DNA of 58,277 bases, taken from the sequence record SRR20825019_1533; one strand, 5' to 3'. Under the pieces are notes generated by a model, which had not been told where the DNA came from, did not search any database, and was given only the letters and a program-made list of their open reading frames with translations. Each line of letters starts with the position of its first letter. Position 1 is the stretch's first letter. The position numbers and the translations under genes were made by a program. Positions 6,044-58,188 of the stretch are shown here, piece by piece.

Positions 6044-7060
6044 TCAGTCTTTCAGCCGTTTTTCCAACAGGGTTACCCGCTCAAATAACTTATCCATCTG
6101 CCGATGGCGGATCACATTTTTATGCCATTGCCGGGCTGGTTCAACCGGGATACCCGATGAATAAACGCCTGCTTCAGTAATGGATTTAGTTACCATACTC
6201 ATGCCGGTAAGCTGAACACCGTCGGCAATGTCGATATGACCAGCAATGCCAGTGCCACCACCAATGGCACAATAGCTGCCAATATGGGTACTACCAGCAA
6301 TACCAACGCAGCCGGCGATCACTGTATGGTCACCTATGGTCACGTTATGGCCGATTTGAATCTGGTTATCCAGTTTAACGCCCTGACCAATAACGGTGTC
6401 ATCAATCGCGCCGCGATCAATGGTCGTGTTGGCACCAATTTCGACATCATCACCGATAATGACACGTCCCAACTGCGGGACTTTAATCCAGCGTCCCTGG
6501 TCATTGGCAATACCGAAGCCGTCTGCCCCGATAACGACACCGGGATGAATCAGAACCCGTTCACCAATCTGCACCTCACGACACAGGGTAACGTTTGCCC
6601 TGATAACAGCATCGCGACCGATATGTACATTCGCCTCAATCACGCTGCCGGGACCAATAGAGGCCCCTTCATCAATGACGGCGCCTTGCTCTACTGTGAC
6701 CTGCGCTGCAATACTGACGTTATCTGCAATACGCGCTTCAGGATGTATCCAGGCTGCAGGATGAATACCGGCTTCTGCTTTGGTAAGCGGGTGCATTAGC
6801 GTGGCCGCCCGGGCATAGGCAACGTAAGCATCTGCAACCACAATCAGGTTGGTATTGGCGCCTGCTTCCACCTCTGCCCCAACGATAACGGCGCCGGCAT
6901 TGGTGGTAGCAAGGAATTTTTTATATTTGTTATTGGCCAGAAAACTGATTTGTTCCGGACCCGCATGCGTCAGGGTGCCAACGCTTTGAATACGATATTC
7001 CGGGTCACCGACAACCTGACCATTAACATGCTGAGCGATCTGCGCTAATGTCCAGCTCAC
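6044..7060 (-). CDS. lpxD: UDP-3-O-acylglucosamine N-acyltransferase
   Basis: Hexapeptide repeats, GADGFG, TIDRGA and KLDNQIQIGHN motifs. Confidence 0.97.
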   Translation of the reverse strand: MSWTLAQIAQHVNGQVVGDPEYRIQSVGTLTHAGPEQISFLANNKYKKFLATTNAGAVIVGAEVEAGANTNLIVVADAYVAYARAATLMHPLTKAEAGIHPAAWIHPEARIADNVSIAAQVTVEQGAVIDEGASIGPGSVIEANVHIGRDAVIRANVTLCREVQIGERVLIHPGVVIGADGFGIANDQGRWIKVPQLGRVIIGDDVEIGANTTIDRGAIDDTVIGQGVKLDNQIQIGHNVTIGDHTVIAGCVGIAGSTHIGSYCAIGGGTGIAGHIDIADGVQLTGMSMVTKSITEAGVYSSGIPVEPARQWHKNVIRHRQMDKLFERVTLLEKRLKD

Positions 7061-7069
7061 GCCCTGGCT

Positions 7070-7579
7070 CTATTTCGCTTTAGCTTTCAGTTTTTCCAGC
7101 ACCTTGTCGGTCAGATCGACTTTGTCGCTGGCAAAAATCACACCCTGATACAGAATCAGGTCAAAGGATTCCTGTTTGGCCAGATCGACAATGGTTTCAG
7201 CAATATCTTTTTCCAGTTCACGCAGTTCTTCATTGCGGCGGATAGACAAATCTTCGCTGTACTCATCCTGTAAACGCTGCAGCTCACGCTGGTCACTGAG
7301 AATATCACGCTCTTTGTCACGACGTTCTTCAGCACCGAGAATCGCGCCGTCTTTATTCAGTTTTTCCTGTGCAGCTCGGAGTGCTCTATGCTTGGCTTCA
7401 AGAGACTGGCTTCTGGATGCGAATTCTTTTTCCAGTCGGGCCAGTGCCGCTGCCTTTTGTGGAGATTTATCCAGCACAACGCCTGCATTGACAACACCGA
7501 TCTTCAAATCTGCCGCATAACTGGCAGGTGCAGCAATCATCAAAGCGAACAACAGCCAAATAAACTTCATATTTTTCAC
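7070..7579 (-). CDS. skp: Periplasmic chaperone Skp/OmpH
   Basis: Signal peptide, KIGVVN, coiled coil and DLTDKVL motif; lies between bamA and lpxD. GTG start after GGAG. Confidence 0.92.
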   Translation of the reverse strand: MKNMKFIWLLFALMIAAPASYAADLKIGVVNAGVVLDKSPQKAAALARLEKEFASRSQSLEAKHRALRAAQEKLNKDGAILGAEERRDKERDILSDQRELQRLQDEYSEDLSIRRNEELRELEKDIAETIVDLAKQESFDLILYQGVIFASDKVDLTDKVLEKLKAKAK

Positions 7580-7598
7580 ACTCAACTCCAATGGTTAA

Positions 7599-9890
7599 TT
7601 AAAACGTCGATCCTAACGAGAACTGGAATGCTTCCGTCTCGTCACCATCTTCTTTACTAAGCGGGGCAGCAATGCTGAATGTCATCGCGCCGAATGGTGA
7701 AATCCAGATAGCTGACAGACCTGCTGAATATCGGAGCAGACCGGCATCGAAATCCTGGTTCACATCGTAGACGTTACCGAAATCAGTAAAGGCGCTGAGA
7801 CGGAACGATTTAAGGGTTTTATCCATAAACGGGACTGGGAAAATAACTTCTGCACCACCCGAAACAAGAAGATTACCGCCTACAGGCTCTTCATCCCCAT
7901 CTGATGTGCGTTCTTTAACACCCAGTGTGTTCGCTTGGAAACCACGAACACTTCTGATGCCACCCGCATAGAAATTTTCAAAGAACGGGAATTCGTTGGT
8001 ATCGCCATAGGCGTCACCATAACCAAACTCACCACGAATCGCAAAGGTCAGATCCTCGGTAATGGGTCTGTAGGCATTTGCCTTGTAGCGTAATTTATAG
8101 AACTGCAGCGACGGACCAGGTATGGCGACTTCAGCGTTGACGCTTTGTGCAATACCGCTGGTCGGCAGAATCGCACTGTCACGGCTATCACTGGACCAGC
8201 CGGCATTCAAGGTGACGGTATCAAAGCTGTCGCCTTCGCGATCGATAAATTCTTCATAGCGGAGAATTCTGTCCCTGCTGGGCAAATCAATCTCAGTGTG
8301 TTCATAACCAAAGCCCAGATCGATCCTATTCTCTTCAGAGATAGGAATACCGTAGGTGAAATCACCACCGAAGGCATCCAGTGTATAGCGTGCAATGTTG
8401 GCCTCGTCTGCATCCGTTTTACGGTAGTAGGCGTTAAAGCCCTGGCTGATACCGTCTATCGTCGCATAAGGGTTGGTATAACCAAAGCTGTATACTGTGT
8501 TGATACTGCTGTTATTGAAGCCGAATCGAATGTGTTTACCACTACCCAGGAAGTTTTTCTGAGTCACATTGGCATTGAAAATGATACCGTCTGACTGGGA
8601 ATAACCAACACCGGCAGACAAGCTGCCCGATGGCGTTTCGGTCACACCATAGTTCAAATCAACCTGGTCCTGCACGCCGGGTACCGGAATAGTCTCCACG
8701 TTGACGTTTTCAAAATAGCCTAACCGCGAGATTCGCGCTTTGGACTGTTCCACCTTGTCGGTCGCAATCCAGGCGGATTCCTGCTGGCGCATTTCTCGAC
8801 GCAGCACTTCATCACGGGTTTTACTGTTACCGGCAATCTGAATCCGTCTGACATAAGCACGGCGCCCCGGATCCACAAAGAAAGTCAGATCGACTTCTTT
8901 GGCTTCACGATCAATTTCCGGCACCGCATTGACGTTCGCAAAGGCATAGCCGTCATTGCCCAGTCGATTGGTCAGGTTTTCAGTACTCTTGGTGATCGCT
9001 TTTCGCGAGAACACCGAATTCTGTTTAATCGTCACCAGGTCGAACAACTCCTCTTCCGGCACAATCAAGTTACCGGCTAGACGGACTTCATCGATCTTGT
9101 ATTTCTCACCTTCAGTGATATTGATGGTGATGAACATGTTTTTCTTGTCATCACTGATCGACACCTGGGTCGATTCCACCGTGAAGTCGACATAACCACG
9201 GTCAAGGTAAAAAGAACGCAGCGTTTCCAGATCCGCTGACAGTTTCTGACGCGAGTATTGATTATCTTTAGTGATGAACGACAGTAAGGTGCCGGTGGTG
9301 GTCTGGAATTCCTCGGTCAGTTCCTCCTGCTCAAAAGAATCGTTACCGACGATGTTGATATCTTTGATGGTGGCAACAACGCCTTCGGCCATGGTGATGC
9401 GGATAGCGACGCGGTTACGGGACAGTGGCGTCACTTCTGATTCAATCGCCACACCATACTTACCGCGGCTGAAATACTGGCGTTCCAGTTCCAGTTCGAC
9501 CCTTTCCAGCATGGCCTGTTCGAATACCTGGCCTTCACCGAAACCGATGTCACGCAAAGACTTGAGCAGTTCTGCCGAGTCCATGTCCTTATTACCCACC
9601 AGTTCGATACTGGAGATGGCCGGTCTTTCCTGAACTTTGATAACCAGGACATTATCCTGACGTTCAACCTGAACGTCTTCAAAATACTTGGACTTATAGA
9701 GGGAGCGAATGATACCGCGGGCATCATTGTCGGTCATTTCATCGCCGACTTTGACGGGAAGGTAATTGAACACGGTACCAGCTGAAATACGCTGCAGTCC
9801 TTCTACCCGAATATCTTCAATCGTAAAAGTCTCTGCCATGACTGCTGCAGAGAGACATAACATGACCAAAACTTGCAGTAATTTTCTCAT
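7599..9890 (-). CDS. bamA: Outer membrane protein assembly factor BamA
   Basis: POTRA domains (IRVEGLQRIS), ENFYAGG..VRGF motif, C-terminal Phe. Confidence 0.98.
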   Translation of the reverse strand: MRKLLQVLVMLCLSAAVMAETFTIEDIRVEGLQRISAGTVFNYLPVKVGDEMTDNDARGIIRSLYKSKYFEDVQVERQDNVLVIKVQERPAISSIELVGNKDMDSAELLKSLRDIGFGEGQVFEQAMLERVELELERQYFSRGKYGVAIESEVTPLSRNRVAIRITMAEGVVATIKDINIVGNDSFEQEELTEEFQTTTGTLLSFITKDNQYSRQKLSADLETLRSFYLDRGYVDFTVESTQVSISDDKKNMFITINITEGEKYKIDEVRLAGNLIVPEEELFDLVTIKQNSVFSRKAITKSTENLTNRLGNDGYAFANVNAVPEIDREAKEVDLTFFVDPGRRAYVRRIQIAGNSKTRDEVLRREMRQQESAWIATDKVEQSKARISRLGYFENVNVETIPVPGVQDQVDLNYGVTETPSGSLSAGVGYSQSDGIIFNANVTQKNFLGSGKHIRFGFNNSSINTVYSFGYTNPYATIDGISQGFNAYYRKTDADEANIARYTLDAFGGDFTYGIPISEENRIDLGFGYEHTEIDLPSRDRILRYEEFIDREGDSFDTVTLNAGWSSDSRDSAILPTSGIAQSVNAEVAIPGPSLQFYKLRYKANAYRPITEDLTFAIRGEFGYGDAYGDTNEFPFFENFYAGGIRSVRGFQANTLGVKERTSDGDEEPVGGNLLVSGGAEVIFPVPFMDKTLKSFRLSAFTDFGNVYDVNQDFDAGLLRYSAGLSAIWISPFGAMTFSIAAPLSKEDGDETEAFQFSLGSTF

Positions 9891-9947
9891 TGTAATTAGT
9901 ACTAACGATCCGTCGACGAAGTTGTAAGTGTACCTGCAAAGGCAGCA

Positions 9948-11285
9948 TTATCCAAACAGTCTTGATAAATCATTGAAAAAGGCCAGAAACATCAGCATTA
10001 GCAACAGGAACAGCCCGATCTGCTGCCCTCTTATCTGTACTTCATCAGGCAAGGGTTTGCCACGAATGGCTTCAATCATAAACATCATCAAATGACCGCC
10101 GTCGAGCATCGGGATCGGCAGCAAATTCAAAATACCCAGGGTAATACTGATCATGGCCAGAAAGCTGACAAAACTAATCAATCCCTGCTCGGCTGAACTG
10201 CCTGCAATCTGGGCAATACTGATTGGGCCGCCCAGATTATCCGTGGAGACCTCACCAGTCAGCATGCCTCCCAGACTTTTCAATGTGGAACTGGTAAATA
10301 ACCAGGTCTGAACCACGGCCTCTTTGACGGCAGCAACAGGACCATAACGCAGCTCAGACCGGAGTTCCTCAGGCAGGCTGCTATAATCGGTGTCGACGCC
10401 GGCACCAATCCGGCCTTTGCCACCGTCTCCGGCTTCTGGTGTCAGAGACAGCTCCAAGGTTTGCTGGCCCCGCTCTATGGTTATTAATAGGGTTTCACCG
10501 GCTTTTTGCTGGATCAATTGCACCCAGTCATTCCAACTGCCCGGTTGACGACCATCGACTGAGACCAGTCTGTCGCCTTCCTGCAACCCAGCTTGCTGAG
10601 CCGGAGAATCAGGTACAACTTGTCCCAGCACGGGGGCAATTTCCGGTCTGAGTGGCGTGATACCCATCTCAATGAGCAAAAGACCGGTCTCGTCGAGCGC
10701 GACTTGCGGTACTTTTATGCTGAGTGTCTGCCTGGCTCCTCCTGATGCGACGGTGAGTTCAGCCTGATCACCCTGCTCAGCATGTCTAAGCAGGGCTTTG
10801 AACACACTGTTCCAGGTCGGCGTATCACGACCGTCGACTTGCACAATTTCATCGCCGCCGACCAGTCCTGCCTCAGCCACTATTGATTGCGGTTCAACCT
10901 CAGCCACGATCGGTTTAATACCGGGAATACCGATAATCAGCAAAAACCAGTAAGCCAGCACGGCAAAAGCCAGGTTGGCAACGGGTCCGGCCACGACAAT
11001 CGCCATACGTTTGGGCAGGGACTGGCGATTGAAAGCCTGATCAAGCTCGTTTTTGGGGACTTCGCCCTCCCGCTCATCAAGCATTTTGACATAGCCGCCC
11101 AGCGGAATCGGTGCAATCACATATTCCGTGCCGTCACGACCGAACTTGCTCCAGATCGGTTTACCAAACCCGACCGAGAAGCGCAGTACCTTGACGCCAC
11201 AGCGACGGGCTACCCAGAAATGACCATACTCATGAATAACAATGAGTAATGACAGGGCAATCAGAAAATAAAATAAAGACAGCAT
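9948..11285 (-). CDS. rseP: RIP metalloprotease RseP
   Basis: HEYGH motif, two PDZ domains, NLLPIPMLDGG. Confidence 0.97.
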   Translation of the reverse strand: MLSLFYFLIALSLLIVIHEYGHFWVARRCGVKVLRFSVGFGKPIWSKFGRDGTEYVIAPIPLGGYVKMLDEREGEVPKNELDQAFNRQSLPKRMAIVVAGPVANLAFAVLAYWFLLIIGIPGIKPIVAEVEPQSIVAEAGLVGGDEIVQVDGRDTPTWNSVFKALLRHAEQGDQAELTVASGGARQTLSIKVPQVALDETGLLLIEMGITPLRPEIAPVLGQVVPDSPAQQAGLQEGDRLVSVDGRQPGSWNDWVQLIQQKAGETLLITIERGQQTLELSLTPEAGDGGKGRIGAGVDTDYSSLPEELRSELRYGPVAAVKEAVVQTWLFTSSTLKSLGGMLTGEVSTDNLGGPISIAQIAGSSAEQGLISFVSFLAMISITLGILNLLPIPMLDGGHLMMFMIEAIRGKPLPDEVQIRGQQIGLFLLLMLMFLAFFNDLSRLFG

Positions 11286-17091: not shown

Positions 17092-17232
17092 GATTATACC
17101 TTTAGAGTATGGGGTTTAGCCTCCACGTACCCCAGTTGTCGACTGTTCGAGTCTTATCGACAGCACCCCGACAACTGTGTCGGCACATGTGTGATTTTGC
17201 TCCGCATGCTCAATTAAAGAGCATCAGCGGGC
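17092..17232 (-). ncRNA. rpsB 5' leader (t44 / S2 autogenous operator)
   Basis: The minus strand contains CACACATGTGCCGACAC..CGGGGTGC..[hairpin]..GGGTACGTGGAGGC-TAAACCCC, which matches the conserved gammaproteobacterial rpsB leader. Ends approximate. Confidence 0.8.
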
Positions 17233-42745: not shown

Positions 42746-43272
42746 AGAACTAAACCCATTAGTTGATCATAAGCTTTGGCATTGAGATATTCGCCGTTAT
42801 GTTTTCTTAACACTAAAACCTGTCTTTTAATATCTTCATTAGTTAACTAGGTCTAAATTAGAATTCGTACCTTTCAAGCAAACTTCTATTCTCGCTGTTA
42901 TCTGTTGGTTCCCAAAAAAAACAGCATCTACGCCATTTCAAACAAAGCCTTCATGACACCAATCTTTAGAGTCTTTAGCCAAGTGGTAGCAAAAACCAGT
43001 TTATTATTCAATTCTATTGCTCCCAGTAAAGGCTTCTCACGTCAATCATTCTCTGTTCCCTTGAAGCATCCAGGCTCAATGACTTTAGTAATTTTTCATA
43101 CTTCAAGTAGAAATTTAGTTCGAACCAAAAATATAATTTGGATGTTTATGGCTTTTTCAAAGGGATGAACTTGAACACGTCGTCAAAACCTAGTCCATAA
43201 TGGACCCGAAATTTACTCGGCAATATTTTTGTTAACTCAAAACTTGTATTGATGTGAGATAAAATACCTCAT
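42742..43272 (-). pseudogene. Probable degraded gene remnant
   Basis: The ~560-bp gap in a tightly packed operon has protein-like fragments broken by stops. The last fragment's TGA overlaps the TTG start of the wecF-like gene. Confidence 0.4.
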
Positions 43273-43303
43273 TATTTATGGCAAGGTAGCTGTTAACTTA
43301 ATT

Positions 43304-44449
43304 TTATTCTTGCAATGCTTTTAATAAACTCCATTGCTCTGGGACTTTCAAGTAAGGATGCATCGGCAAACTCATCACCTCTTCAGCGACTTTGTCACCA
43401 ATAGGCAGGGCTGCTTTTACATCGGCAACCGCCGGTTGTTTATTCAAAGGTATAGGGTAATGAATTGCAGTCGGTATGCCAGCCGTATTGAGCTTTTCTT
43501 GTAAAACGTCTCGGCCTTCACTTCTAATGGTGTATTGCGCCCAGACGCTGGTGTTGTGTGGCTCGATGATCGGGGTGATTACTTTGCCACGGAAATCACT
43601 GACATCCACGGAAGAAATATTATTTATATCTTTCTGTGATTTTTCGTGTTGTTCTGTGGCATTAAACAGTTCTGTATATCTTGAGGCCACTTGATTGCGG
43701 AGTTTGATTTCTTCATCGAGGATTTCCAGCTTGGGCAGTAGTATGGCCGCCTGCAAGGTATCTAAACGGCTGTTAATGCCTACTCGGATATGGTGGTAAC
43801 GTTTATCCTGGCCATGACGGGCAATTTGTCTGATGACCTTAGCCAGTTCTTCATCATTGGTGAAAACAGCACCGCCATCGCCATAGCAGCCTAACGGCTT
43901 ACTCGGGAAAAAGCTGGTGCAGCCAATGGTGCTCAGATTGCAGGATTTACGGCCTTTGTATGTCGCCCCGAAGCTCTGCGCGCCATCTTCGATGACTGCA
44001 AGATTATGTTTTTCTGCTATTGCATTAATGGCATCAAAGTCTGCACATTGTCCGTAAAGTGAGACGGCAATAATGGCTTTAGTTCTTGGGGTAATGGCGG
44101 CTTCGATGTTTTCCGGGTCGATATTGAATGTGACCGGGTCAATATCCACGTAAACGGGTTTTGCGCCAAGAACTGCTGGTGTTTCTGCTGTGGCGATATA
44201 GCTGAAGCCGGGCACGATAACTTCATCACCAAAGCCAATGCCGAGGGCCATCTGAGCGATTTGTAATGCATCCGTACCGTTGGCCACTGAAATGCAGTAT
44301 TTTGCGCCGGTGTAAGCTGCGAGCTTGTCTTCCAGTTCGTCGACTTCAGGGCCGAGGATGTATTTGCCGTGTGCAAGTACTGCCTGGATATTGGCATCGA
44401 TTTTATCTTTGATGCGGGCTTGTTGTGCGGCGAGATCGATGAATTGCAT
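43304..44449 (-). CDS. wbpE: UDP-3-keto-GlcNAcA aminotransferase (DegT family) with an in-frame repeat insertion
   Basis: MQFIDLAAQQ, NGTDALQIA, SFFPSKPLGCYGDGGA and NSRLDTLQAA motifs. Confidence 0.9.
   Translation of the reverse strand: MQFIDLAAQQARIKDKIDANIQAVLAHGKYILGPEVDELEDKLAAYTGAKYCISVANGTDALQIAQMALGIGFGDEVIVPGFSYIATAETPAVLGAKPVYVDIDPVTFNIDPENIEAAITPRTKAIIAVSLYGQCADFDAINAIAEKHNLAVIEDGAQSFGATYKGRKSCNLSTIGCTSFFPSKPLGCYGDGGAVFTNDEELAKVIRQIARHGQDKRYHHIRVGINSRLDTLQAAILLPKLEILDEEIKLRNQVASRYTELFNATEQHEKSQKDINNISSVDVSDFRGKVITPIIEPHNTSVWAQYTIRSEGRDVLQEKLNTAGIPTAIHYPIPLNKQPAVADVKAALPIGDKVAEEVMSLPMHPYLKVPEQWSLLKALQE
43585..43661. repeat. 77-bp palindromic element of the CACGGAA repeat family inside wbpE
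   Basis: TGCCACGGAA-ATCACTGAC-ATCCACGGAA ... TTCTGTG-ATTTTTCGTG-TTGTTCTGTGGCA; same arms as at 44468-45286. Confidence 0.85.
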
Positions 44450-44520
44450 GGTTATTTACTCAATTTTTTGCCACGGAAGGTCACGGAAGTACACGAAAAA
44501 ATTATTCATAAAGTAGTTTG

Positions 44521-44859
44521 TTGCCTTATGCCACGGAATCCACGGTAATGCTCGGAAATCATATTCATTGAATAAGGCTGTTTTTATTTTTTCCAACATC
44601 GTCCCTTACATACACCGGGCATTTTCTCTAACTAAAATCAAAAAAGATAACAACAAATTCTTTTCCGTGTAGGTCCGTGTTTTCAGTGGCTTGCCTTTTT
44701 TTCACGGAATCCACGGAAGCACACAGAAATTTATTCATATAAAAATTCGTTTCAATTTTCCCCAACATCAGCACAACCGTTGATTGCCCATTTCTCTAAC
44801 TATAATTAAAGGAAATAACAATATAATTATTTTCCGTGTGGTTCTGTGTTTTCCGTGGC
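44521..44859 (-). repeat. Two tandem ~170-bp hairpin units with variable 19-nt cores (candidate ncRNA array)
   Basis: Units 44521-44690 and 44691-44859 both start with TTGCCTT, have triple CACGGAA/TTCCGTG arms and share CCAACATC and TTTCTCTAACTA blocks. Confidence 0.85.
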
Positions 44860-44888
44860 TCGTATCATTTGCCAGTAAAATAAACCGC

Positions 44889-45251
44889 TCAAAAAACCAG
44901 ACGCTTAATCGTGGCTTTGGGCTGGGCGAAATTCACAAGCAGTCCGACTTTGAATCCTGTTGCTTTTAAATAATTAATCACTTGCGCTTCATATGCAGGA
45001 TGAAGTGCTTTTACAGCTTTCAACTCAATCAACACCCTGTTCTCCACGACAATATCTGCTCGAAACTCACCAACCGCCAGGCCTTTATAGGTGACTTTCA
45101 GCGGCACTTCCGATTCGGTGCCAATGCCCAACATATCAAGCTCGTGAACCAATGCTTTTTGATAGACGCTCTCCAAAAAGCCATGGCCCAATTGTCTGTA
45201 GACTTCAAATATGGCACCACGAATCTTGTAAGTTAGTTCTTCCTCTTGCAT
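44889..45251 (-). CDS. GxxExxY protein (PD-(D/E)XK nuclease superfamily)
   Basis: 120 aa with GFLESVY (GxxExxY), AD-IVVENRVLI-ELK catalytic-type motif, and AQVINYLKATG..GLLVNF. Confidence 0.93.
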   Translation of the reverse strand: MQEEELTYKIRGAIFEVYRQLGHGFLESVYQKALVHELDMLGIGTESEVPLKVTYKGLAVGEFRADIVVENRVLIELKAVKALHPAYEAQVINYLKATGFKVGLLVNFAQPKATIKRLVF

Positions 45252-45307
45252 TTAACTTCCGTGTCTTTTGTTGTCTTCCGTGGCAACTCATTTTTGGGTA
45301 ACGCCTT

Positions 45308-45886
45308 CTATGTCAATTTTGAGAGATTGCCATCACTAAGCTGATATTTATCGCCGGTGTGTGGGCAGGTTGTTTCAGCATCACCACTTAGCGGCAGGTC
45401 CAGTTGTTCGCCATATTCACTCATCCAACCGATTTGTTTGGCCGGTACGCCTACCATGAGGGCATAGGGTTTGACGTCTTTGGTGACAACGGCGCCAGCA
45501 CCGACAAAGGCAAACTCACCGATGGTCGTACCGCAGACGATGGTGCAATTTGCACCCAGAGTCGCCCCCTTTTTTACCAGCGTGTCGCGGTATTCATCTT
45601 TTCGTTCGATGAGTGAGCGGGGGTTATGCACATTGGTAAACACCATGCTCGGACCGCAGAAAACGCCTTCTTCCAGGTGAACATTGTCATAGACTGAAAC
45701 ATTGTTCTGAATTTTGCAGTTATCGCCGATGGTGACTTTGTTGCCGACGAACACATTTTGTCCCAGGGAGACGCCTCGGCCGACTTTGGCACCACTGCAA
45801 ACGTGCACCCAGTGCCAGACGCGTGAATCGTCGCCTATCTGGGCGCCTTCATCGACGATAGCGGTTTCATGTTGATAAAAGCTCAT
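45308..45886 (-). CDS. wbpD: UDP-2-acetamido-3-amino-2,3-dideoxy-glucuronate N-acetyltransferase
   Basis: [24 protein letters not shown] and [14 protein letters not shown] motifs. Confidence 0.93.
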
Positions 45887-46833
45887 TGCTGAACCACCTT
45901 GTGAAGCAAGGGATGGGCTGTTTCTGTTGCAGTGACTAAAGGTGCGGTTCGAATTGACTCAACGGTTTCAATAGCAACCCGGTTTTCTTCAAGACCATAA
46001 CCTTTGCCATCCAGAATCCGCTGGTAGCTCTGCGTGTGTAAGTCAGTGAAGCCCCCTGAAAATTCCAGTTCTTCACCTTCAATCGTAATGCTGCGATAGG
46101 TCAGCTTCTCGCCTTGTATGGCATTTTCCGGGAGATTGCTAGCATCGATAGATAAGAACCAGCGAACCCGGGCTTTTTCATATTCCAGATAGCCGGAACA
46201 GGTTTTTTCATCACGATAATGGACTTCATTTTTAGTGATCCTGCCAAAAATGAAATGCAACATATCGTAGAAGTGAACGCCGATATTAGTGGCGACACCG
46301 CCGGATTTGTCGCTAACCCCCTTCCAGGACTTCAGATACCATTTTCCTCTTGAGGTCATGTAGGTCAGTTCGACATCAAAGATTTTATCCGCCGGCGCCT
46401 GCTCAACCTTTTCTTTTAACGCCAGGATGGCTGGATGCAACCTAAGTTGTAATATCGAGTTAACTCTGGCGCCATATTGTTGCTGGTATTTTTCCAGCAC
46501 TTCCAGATCTGAGGAATTAAGCACCAGAGGCTTTTCACAAATCACGTCAATGCCGTTCTTCAGAGCATATTTCATGTGTGGCGCATGCAGGTAGTTGGGT
46601 GAACAAATGGCAATGTAATCCAGTTTGTTACCCTGCAGTTTTTGGTCCTCGACATAGGCTTCAAACTCTTCAAACTCAGTGAAGAATTCGGCATCAGGAA
46701 AATGACTGTCCATGATTCCCACGGAGTCATTTACATCCATGGCGACGGATAGCGTATTACCCGTTTCCTTAATCGCTTTTAGATGTCGTGGCGCTATATA
46801 TCCAGCAGCACCGATGAGGGCAAATTTTTTCAT
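45883..46833 (-). CDS. wbpB: UDP-GlcNAcA 3-dehydrogenase (Gfo/Idh/MocA family)
   Basis: [22 protein letters not shown] and [14 protein letters not shown] motifs. Confidence 0.93.
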
Positions 46834-48950: not shown

Positions 48951-50321
48951 TCAGTCCTGGCCGAAAAGATCTCTTGTGTAGACTTTTTCCCGGATATCTA
49001 CGATGTCATCAGTTACTCTGTTAGCCAGCACGACATCGGCTTTTCGTTTAAATTCGTCCAGGTCTTTTATGACTGCTGAGCGGAAGAAAGTATCTTCTTC
49101 GAGTACAGGTTCGTAGACTACGACCTCAATACCCTTAGCTTTGATACGCTTCATTACACCCTGTATCGCGGAAGCACGAAAGTTATCAGATCCTGATTTC
49201 ATTACCAGTCGATAGATCCCCACTACCTTTGGATTTCTTTTGATGATGGAGTCAGCAATGAATTCTTTACGGGTTGTATTGGCGTCGACAATTGCTTTGA
49301 TCAGATTGTTGGGTACATTCTGATAATTAGCAAGTAGTTGTCGGGTATCTTTGGGAAGGCAATAACCACCATATCCAAAGGATGGATTGTTGTAATGACT
49401 CCCGATTCTGGAGTCTAACCCTACCCCTTCAATGATCTGACGGGTATCAAGACCATGCGTTTCAGCATAGCTGTCCAACTCATTGAAATAGGCCACCCGC
49501 ATGGCAAGATAAGTGTTCGAAAACAGTTTGATTGCCTCAGCTTCTGTAGGACCGGTATAAAGAACTGGGATATCAGTTTTGATGGCACCCTGAGTCAATA
49601 AAGCAGCAAAAGCCTTAGCTTCAGGACTGCGTTCCCCAACTACAATTCTTGAAGGGTAAAGATTGTCATAAAGCGCTTTACCTTCCCTCAGAAACTCCGG
49701 AGAAAAAATGATACTGGGCTGTTTTTCCACGAAGTTTTGTCTATGAGTTTCGTTTAATTCGAGCTCGCAGATAGTTTGCTGGAGTTGCGTCGATAAATGC
49801 CAGACTTGGTTGCCGGGTGATGGCTTTTTCTGACCGCGTTCATCACCAATCATCACTCTGGATTGAACCTTGTTTTGAACACCATCAGACAACTGCCGGC
49901 TCAAACCGCGAACAAAATGCCTTGCGCTGTATTTTTGTTTGACAGACTCAGTGTAACCAACTGGCACTGTTGACTTAATAATCATTGTTGCGCCCGGGTT
50001 GATACTTAGAACATCTTCAATGACCGTCTCAACATTCTGGGTATTGAAGTAATTCGTATCCGGGTCGTAATCAGTAGGGGTTGCAATAATCACAAACTCA
50101 GCATCTCGATAGGCCTGATGCTTGTCCAGAGTTGCTCTAAGCCTGAGAGATTTATTGGCAAGAAAGTCGCTTATCTCGACATCGCTGATGGGGGATTTTC
50201 GAGCATTAATCAGATCAACTTTACGTACATCAATGTCCAGTGCTGTCACTTCGTTATTTTGTGCCAGCAGCACTGCCAGTGACAAACCGACGTATCCAGT
50301 TCCGGCAACGGTAATTTTCAC
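48951..50321 (-). CDS. ugd: UDP-glucose 6-dehydrogenase with a ~68-aa in-frame insertion
   Basis: [30 protein letters not shown] and [10 protein letters not shown] motifs. GTG start at 50321. Confidence 0.93.
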
Positions 50322-50416
50322 TTTACGTTTCCCGTATTGTGGAAAACTAAAGTGTCGCAAGTCAGCTTTGCATTAAGGTGACAGTTTTATGAAGTTTTTT
50401 TGAAACTGTACTCGCT

Positions 50417-58111: not shown

Positions 58112-58188
58112 TGGCGCGCCCGGCAGGACTCGAACCTGCTACCCTCGGCTTAGAAGGCCGATGCTCTATCCAGATGAGCTACGGGCGC
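58112..58188 (-). tRNA. tRNA-Arg (TCT)
   Basis: GCGCCCGTAGCTCATCTGGATAGAGCATCGGCCTTCTAAGCCGAGGGTAGCAGGTTCGAGTCCTGCCGGGCGCGCCA: cloverleaf, anticodon TCT, CCA end. Confidence 0.97.

Follow-up and report, generated by a model that had tools for sequence, protein, structure and literature searches.

In the systems formed by repetitive extragenic palindromic (REP) sequences and REP-associated tyrosine transposases (RAYTs), a single small gene is flanked by repeats that are also scattered without the gene, often as inverted pairs, in the intergenic regions of operons. These systems leave no target duplication, are chromosomal and largely vertically inherited, and combine distinct repeat classes with distinct protein clades. 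The RAYT protein (TnpA-REP) is an HUH/Y1 enzyme that cuts and rejoins single-stranded DNA, and each REP is one short palindrome bearing a conserved 5' tetranucleotide. In this study, we describe an element built around a gene of the GxxExxY family in a 58,277-nt stretch of DNA from sequence record SRR20825019_1533 (hereafter the window), where it occupies the 858-bp interval between a wbpD-like and a wbpE-like gene. This interval is a member of a widespread family of small inverted-repeat cassettes, the canonical form of which is approximately 0.43-0.74 kb long, with one GxxExxY gene between a forward and a reverse arm. The canonical arm of approximately 25-35 bp usually carries three CRCRGA-type heptamers, spaced 9-11 bp (about one helical turn) apart, behind a GCCAC-like terminus. 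This gene-plus-arms package recurs in many bacterial and archaeal phyla, which gives it the look of selfish DNA. A search of article texts found no description of repeats around GxxExxY genes or of the arm strings.

The window contains one such element, with two gene-less arm pairs between the gene and the distal arm and a fourth arm pair in wbpE. The original prediction, made from the letters of the window, had named perfect 12-bp terminal inverted repeats, and these are present as TTGCCACGGAAG and CTTCCGTGGCAA at 44468-44479 and 45275-45286. Both copies are, as it also held, the outer ends of three-word CACGGAA arms, which reached 20/21 (44472-44498) and 18/21 (45257-45282) in a scan for three CACGGAA-like words with 9-11 bp spacing, scored out of 21. 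The upstream, forward arm F1 (45257-45286) comprises CACGGAA, a degenerate middle word and a second CACGGAA, with spacings of 9 and 10 bp, and its outer 12 bp contribute one copy of the perfect inverted repeat. The coding (minus) strand carries, in this order, the wbpD stop codon, 21 bp, F1 (45286-45257), 5 bp, the GxxExxY gene (44889-45251, 120 aa), 28 bp, arm pair 3 (44859-44701), arm pair 2 (44690-44530), a stub of about 30 bp, the distal, reverse arm R1' (44498-44468), 18 bp and the start of wbpE. One arm thus lies just upstream of the start codon and its partner just upstream of wbpE, in agreement with the original prediction. The stub, which together with R1' spans 44468-44529, looks like a gene-less unit at its inner left end. 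The innermost heptamer of F1 (45257-45263) also gives a GGAAG 4 nt before the ATG (45249-45251), and this purine-rich word may double as a ribosome-binding site.

The proposal of a single 819-bp cassette between two arms did not hold. Arm pair 3 (44701-44859, 159 bp; arms 44703-44728 and 44832-44857, both 20/21), which resembles a MITE (miniature inverted-repeat transposable element) or a REP doublet forming a hairpin (REPIN), has an inverted repeat of 33 nt that is 79% complementary. Arm pair 2 (44530-44690, 161 bp; arms 44532-44557 and 44663-44688, both 19/21) and arm pair 3 are tandem copies with a start-to-start period of 169-171 bp and segments that are 76-86% alike. Since these copies lie inside the outer pair, the 819-bp unit is composite. 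The fourth pair measures 75 bp and stands in frame in the wbpE coding sequence (43586-43660; arms 19/21 and 18/21). The arm nearest downstream of the GxxExxY gene (44832-44857) is oriented like the upstream arm and not inverted. The outer pair reaches only about 10-12 in the ungapped score used for other loci (threshold 14), so that this element represents a degenerate, interrupted family member. Chance is excluded as a source of the arms and of the word enrichment. All eight triple-word arms found by the scan of the window fall within 43588-45282, compared to 0-1 per mononucleotide shuffle (n = 10). The window has 18 exact copies of CACGGAA where 6.4 would be expected. None of 100 shuffles reaches 18 copies, and 12 of the 18 fall in the same 1.7-kb stretch (43588-45282).

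The insertion status of the interval follows from the operons in which it is missing. The host genes are a wbpD-like hexapeptide acyltransferase gene upstream of the cassette (45308-45886, minus strand) and a wbpE-like DegT aminotransferase gene downstream of it (43304-44449, minus strand; family match), the product of which matches solved WbpE with an E-value of 8e-170. They belong to an operon of wbpA/B/D/E-type genes encoding a nucleotide-sugar dehydrogenase, a Gfo/Idh/MocA oxidoreductase, the hexapeptide acyltransferase and the DegT aminotransferase. The original prediction had taken wbpD and wbpE to be normally adjacent and suggested a search for empty sites. A DNA search of plasmids with positions 43304-46000 as query found the acyltransferase and aminotransferase genes 0 bp apart on the Diaphorobacter plasmid pDCB1 and overlapping by 4 bp on a Pseudomonas frederiksbergensis plasmid, both operons having approximately 72% DNA identity to the window. 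As the two genes abut in these related operons, the 858-bp interval is an insertion. In Chromobacterium aquaticum (L010), the wbpD-wbpE junction is free of arms (wbpD and wbpE 64% and 55% identical to those of the window, respectively), and a 481-bp cassette with the same CACGGAA arms is located one junction upstream, after a Gfo/Idh/MocA gene. Thus, filled and empty junctions are found reciprocally in one operon type. The 75-bp pair within wbpE likewise adds approximately 22-24 residues without counterpart in homologues: solved WbpE homologues leave query residues 264-291 unaligned, and a gap of 24 residues in the Chromobacterium homologue falls at precisely this place.

The 120-aa open reading frame (ORF) of the cassette matches TIGR04256 (GxxExxY; residues 5-119) with 148.3 bits (cut-off 35) and PF13366 (PDDEXK_3) with 141.3 bits (cut-off 22), and these two models are its only family matches. 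The D...ExK motif noted in the original prediction is intact. In an alignment of 36 homologues, 31 columns are invariant, including E16, E27, Y30, D66, E76 and K78, and mean column identity is 66%. The AlphaFold model has a predicted local distance difference test (pLDDT) score of 95.5 and the order helix-helix-strand-strand-strand-helix-strand-strand; its best structural matches are Cas4, the Hjc resolvase and lambda exonuclease (template modelling score about 0.5, E-values of 1e-4 to 1e-2). The modelled structure indicates a minimal nuclease fold of the PD-(D/E)XK type in which the catalytic triad is intact and for which catalysis is predicted. Sequence searches of solved structures gave no match, and in a defence-system library there was no match for the window protein and a weak match to Cas4 for one of four proteins (E-value 0.008). 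The family is very large, with 6,935 PF13366/TIGR04256 homologues at E <= 1e-10 among 7,022 candidates, and the relevant part of a 2012 survey of the superfamily gives the function of PDDEXK_3 as 'Unknown'. It is found in none of 50,697 phage records and in 8 of 72,556 plasmid records, none of them above 48% identity, and the cassette has no DNA match in 5,426 complete Escherichia coli genomes.

The association between arms and GxxExxY genes extends well beyond the window, as the original prediction had expected. A scan of genome contigs with the alignment of 36 homologues gave at least 80 loci, whose proteins are 46-63% identical to that of the window; the set excludes the window's own genome and its 69-92% identical relatives. 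The best ungapped inverted repeat was sought around each gene, from 250 bp upstream to 400 bp downstream. Of the 72 genes with enough flank for this test (ten others had too little), 40 reached a score of at least 14, compared to 1 of 195 positions drawn at random from these loci. A second test looked for word arrays, defined as at least two copies of C[AG]C[AG]GA, ACAGGA, CACGAA or AACGGA, 9-11 bp apart and in the correct orientation. Such arrays stand on at least one side of 55 of 73 genes (13 of 290 controls) and on both sides of 30 of 73 genes (0 of 290 controls). The 48 clean cassettes are 433-739 bp long, with about 500 bp being typical. In 19 of the 48, no more than 20 nt separate the end of the forward arm from the start codon. 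The reverse arm usually begins 0-110 bp past the stop codon.

The same word family is found in Pseudomonadota, Planctomycetota, Chloroflexota, Acidobacteriota, Bacteroidota, and archaea. Most loci of Pseudomonadota and Planctomycetota carry CACGGA(A/T), many of Thermodesulfobacteriota and Myxococcota carry CACAGAC or CGCAGA, and CAGGAT is found in Chloroflexota and Acidobacteriota, with CACGAA at a few loci. Across 38 arms of the CACGGAA group, conservation is approximately 40-55% in the spacers and approximately 90% at the GC that precedes the first word, the words themselves having been the selection criterion. On a quick maximum-likelihood tree of 81 of the 83 proteins, arm class required 30 changes, compared to a mean of 44.2 after shuffling, and none of 200 shuffles was as low. 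Nine cassettes with CAGGAT arms form one clade (support 100) that spans three host phyla. Furthermore, one Geobacteraceae genome encodes two copies with different arms, each grouping with similarly armed relatives, one of them in the CAGGAT clade. Since arm class follows protein clade across phyla, gene and arms stay together as one unit through inheritance and transfer. Common descent by itself could produce this clustering, which is therefore no proof of recognition.

Cassettes are also tolerated inside host proteins. In 22 longer homologues (E <= 1e-8, among 1,393 candidates), PF13366 is embedded in or fused to a host protein. RecG-type Pfam domains surround it in P0134, P0138, and P0139, and LeuRS-type (leucyl-tRNA synthetase) domains in P0140 and P0141; the sequences of P0134, P0138, and P0140 were examined, and P0139 and P0141 are known from their Pfam domain order only. 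In the RecG protein P0138, residues 409-556 form a 148-residue insertion where Thermotoga RecG has 7 residues, and the domain embedded in P0134 is, by sequence, at the same site. A whole cassette apparently resides in frame inside the LeuRS of P0140. At the protein level, the peptides flanking the embedded domain look like translated arms. In one further protein (P0129), an epimerase is fused to a GxxExxY domain.

The genomic contexts of the cassettes, with neighbours called crudely as the nearest long ORFs, are diverse. The 69 upstream neighbours include genes for Dus, NAD synthase, chorismate synthase, PdxJ, PheS, ThrRS, CarA, RecO, IspF, and Hsp90 as well as restriction and ABC genes, seven polysaccharide genes and one DDE transposase gene (L015). 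The upstream neighbour is on the cassette strand at 60 of the 73 loci having one, the downstream neighbour at 54 of 68, and both at 42 of 62.

Arms without a GxxExxY gene between them occur at other loci as well. In a capsule cluster of Marinobacter daqiaonensis (L001, 2690-14270), about 24 near-perfect arms, some of them nested, are found in 20 kb at nearly every junction, in the two word flavours CACGGAA and CGCGGAA and with PIN, HepT, and NusG-like genes between arms; the gene-less pairs of this locus have the arms alone in common with those of the window. In Nitrosomonas halophila (L075), four tandem gene-less arm pairs of approximately 150 bp are located directly upstream of the GxxExxY gene (1134-2985), two short arm pairs lie within a 608-aa ORF of no known family, and a further pair (9747-10006) is found between the PglZ and BrxL genes of a bacteriophage exclusion (BREX)-type cluster. 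At another locus (L013, 4364-4905), a four-helix-bundle gene (TIGR02436) lies inside inverted arms of a CAGAGGT-like tandem word, forming a unit of approximately 540 bp, and a gene of the same family has a like arrangement in L018 (approximately 6427-8042). TIGR02436 comprises Avd proteins and the proteins of 23S rRNA intervening sequences. Repeat-armed single-gene cassettes are thus a wider phenomenon, each gene family being seen with its own word.

To explain this pattern, we lean towards a reading in which GxxExxY is the cognate arm-binding and arm-cutting protein of a genome-resident element of the REP/RAYT kind. An array of words spaced by a helical turn, with variable spacers and a conserved terminus and tied to one nuclease, looks like a protein-binding end and not like an RNA stem. 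We infer binding, cleavage, a mobilisation mechanism, and autonomy of the element from these features. Copies of the protein would attach to the word arrays of the two arms and cut the DNA at the arm termini or close to them, and host repair or replication would complete the reaction. In this way, the protein would maintain and occasionally spread its own cassette and the gene-less arm pairs, and its relation to the arms would parallel that of RAYT to REP/REPIN. We propose that the cassettes, which begin shortly past an upstream stop codon and end shortly ahead of the ribosome-binding site of the next gene, mostly on the operon strand, are co-transcribed and tolerated and may therefore persist for long periods.

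The REP/RAYT analogy drawn in the original prediction stands in several respects. The gene is flanked by copies of a dispersed repeat that also forms gene-less inverted pairs, in the window as well as in L001 and at other loci. As in REP/RAYT systems, there is no target duplication, the element is chromosomal, nearly absent from plasmids and phages and largely vertically inherited, and arm classes are tied to protein clades. The analogy fails for the enzyme, which has a PD-(D/E)XK hydrolase fold and is not an HUH/Y1 protein, and for the repeat, since an arm here strings together three direct heptamers at 9-11 bp spacing instead of forming a single short palindrome.

Several findings weigh against a nuclease that acts on its own arms. 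Among the 48 cassettes, there is no signal of target-site duplication: with a slack of up to 3 bp, the best 9-mer matches between flanks are distributed as in 2,000 random flank pairs. An all-against-all blastn search revealed no near-identical copies at separate sites. DNA identities between cassettes are 65-81%, with a value of 79% for the two copies of a single genome; the one exception, an adjacent tandem pair in L032, reaches 92%. The cassettes of L022 and L036 share their context in related taxa, which indicates vertical descent. The claim of the original prediction that this is a mobile unit is partly supported. Empty junctions exist and the arms accompany GxxExxY genes elsewhere, so that neither of the two outcomes it named as refuting was obtained, but no recent transposition is seen and conservation is in part vertical; the elements look old and stable. 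In addition, 18 of 73 genes lack a word array under the pattern used. A stand-alone PD-(D/E)XK hydrolase cannot itself rejoin DNA, as is established for the enzymology of this superfamily, and transposition chemistry would therefore need other factors. Finally, the four-helix-bundle cassettes and the arms beside PIN/HepT toxin-antitoxin genes suggest that repeat arms may be a general cassette feature and not a signature of the nuclease.

The cassettes could alternatively be RNA elements resembling the intervening sequences (IVSs) of 23S rRNA, the arms pairing in the transcript as a stem of approximately 30 bp that is cut by RNase III and thereby releases or insulates the cassette, with GxxExxY as a passenger and spread by an unknown or host route. 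We consider this unlikely, although the resemblance in size and anatomy is close. In the excerpted account of PMC4990558, IVSs are 428-444 nt long with a 28-bp terminal stem and one small ORF, are excised by RNase III, and were acquired horizontally and then maintained vertically, their origin being unknown. Against that partial description, the cassettes have about 430-500 nt, terminal inverted repeats of approximately 28-30 bp, one ORF of about 120 aa and a similarly sporadic, then vertical occurrence. The preference of neighbours for the cassette strand and the four-helix-bundle genes of the IVS-protein family in analogous inverted-repeat cassettes (L013 and L018) also fit an RNA element. 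In the predicted fold of the 44464-45290 sense RNA, the outer arms pair with each other (z = -4.99 vs. 20 shuffles), as those of any inverted repeat would. In contrast, an RNA stem needs neither tandem words at helical-turn spacing nor a word shared across phyla, and arm mismatches show no wobble bias (43 of the G:T type vs. 43 of the A:C type). Arm pairs and cassettes reside in frame in coding sequences, where RNA excision would destroy the message. No Rfam family matched positions 43000-46000 at E <= 1. IVSs also differ in location, as they occupy rRNA helices (helix 25 or 45), out of which RNase III cuts them, whereas GxxExxY cassettes lie between or inside protein genes. Moreover, the ORF belongs to another family, and the arms of the two four-helix-bundle cassettes use another word.

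A further alternative is that the arm pairs are ordinary MITEs, moved in trans by a conventional (e.g. DDE) transposase encoded elsewhere, with GxxExxY as a passenger or with arms that insert beside genes. The three gene-less pairs of the window (75, 161, and 159 bp) do have the size, inverted repeats, and non-coding content of MITEs; the gene-bearing unit does not. At the window, CTCAATTTT (44459-44467), directly outside the left end, matches CTCATTTTT (45287-45295), directly outside the right end, at 8 of 9 positions and may be a 9-bp target duplication, albeit one that is T-rich, of low complexity and alone among the loci. The flanks of arm pair 2 also match at 8 of 9 positions, for which the tandem duplication accounts. 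Many termini read TA-GCCAC...GTGGC-TA, in which the TA could equally be a mere extension of the palindrome, and a DDE transposase gene adjoins the gene of L015. MITEs are non-coding derivatives of transposase-bearing insertion sequences, whereas the sole gene associated with the arms is that of a 120-aa protein with a nuclease fold. A parent insertion sequence with matching ends and a transposase was not found: a scan of 44 window ORFs gave no transposase or integrase family, and 1 of the 69 upstream neighbours scanned is a DDE transposase. The 48 cassettes lack 9-bp duplications. A lineage-specific transposase would not give a gene-arm association that holds across many phyla with arm class tracking protein clade. 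Taken together, these observations make ordinary MITEs improbable. Published descriptions offer partial parallels to the gene-less pairs. The Chunjie elements of Geobacter are given, in the excerpts of PMC3184786 and PMC10969869, as 178-235 bp long with 21-bp terminal repeats and 9-bp direct repeats and as residing in operons. Compared by that description only, the 9-bp repeats recall the 8/9 flank match of the window, as the position of short inverted-repeat elements in operon junctions recalls MITEs. In the same excerpts (PMC10969869, PMC3184786), Rickettsia palindromic elements insert in frame into protein genes, as does the 75-bp pair in wbpE.

The weakest alternative, a host-serving module in which GxxExxY, as a nuclease or a protein that binds DNA or RNA sequence-specifically, has a cellular role in repair, defence or operon regulation and the arms are operators or substrates kept for regulation and not for mobility, would fit the strong purifying selection on the protein, its long vertical persistence, its near-absence from plasmids and phages and the position of the L075 locus inside a BREX-type defence cluster, but is highly improbable given the unrelated contexts (tRNA synthetase, cofactor, isoprenoid, polysaccharide, and restriction genes), the gene-less pairs and in-frame insertions in WbpE and RecG that lack regulatory logic, and the missing defence-system match.

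Two other classes of small genetic elements were compared. Free-standing homing endonuclease genes are directed at a single cognate site and do not depend on terminal inverted repeats. The cassettes resemble them as small nuclease genes between or inside conserved genes, and the RecG proteins P0134 and P0138 share an insertion site, with P0139 compared by domain order only. They differ in being found at very many unrelated sites and in none of the phage records searched. Integron cassettes carry an attC with conserved core sites and have an integron integrase nearby. An integron gene cassette was rejected, as no integrase is encoded among the window ORFs, the arms are direct heptamer arrays, and the cassettes are scattered singly among housekeeping genes.

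If the REP/RAYT-like reading holds, a conserved word array tied to the gene provides a concrete candidate substrate for a very large protein family without an assigned role. A GxxExxY protein acting on its arms would make this the smallest self-contained mobile or genome-resident element known to us, using alone an enzyme class that no insertion sequence family is known to use alone. This would account for unexplained insertions in operons, including polysaccharide loci, for the extra segments in WbpE, RecG, and apparently LeuRS, and for fused or over-long gene calls in metagenomes. More tentatively, we raise the possibility that GxxExxY/PDDEXK_3 is the element-encoded enzyme of an unrecognised pan-prokaryotic superfamily of minimal mobile elements of approximately 0.5 kb, with iteron-like arms, MITE/REPIN-like derivatives, in-frame residence in essential genes and a chemistry outside the DDE, HUH, serine, and tyrosine classes, and that the same logic, with a different protein and a different word, underlies the 23S rRNA intervening sequences. 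The parallel with the four-helix-bundle cassettes would offer a route into the origin of the latter.

Promoter and terminator scans showed no excess over shuffles. Outside the cassette, the 558 bp downstream of wbpE (42746-43303) are without arms and contain no ORF of at least 100 aa on the operon strand; this segment may be the remains of a gene or mark the place where two blocks of polysaccharide genes meet. A second in-frame segment is found in a Ugd-like protein of 469 aa (UDP-glucose dehydrogenase ORF 48951-50360, minus strand), where residues 145-215 (49716-49928) form a 71-residue stretch at which the solved homologue has approximately 3 residues. This segment is without CACGGAA arms and has, close by, no more than a weak inverted repeat. 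Only two Rfam hits across the window reach the gathering score, and both are ordinary RNA features: a t44 RNA upstream of rpsB (17114-17211) and one tRNA at the window end (58115-58188).

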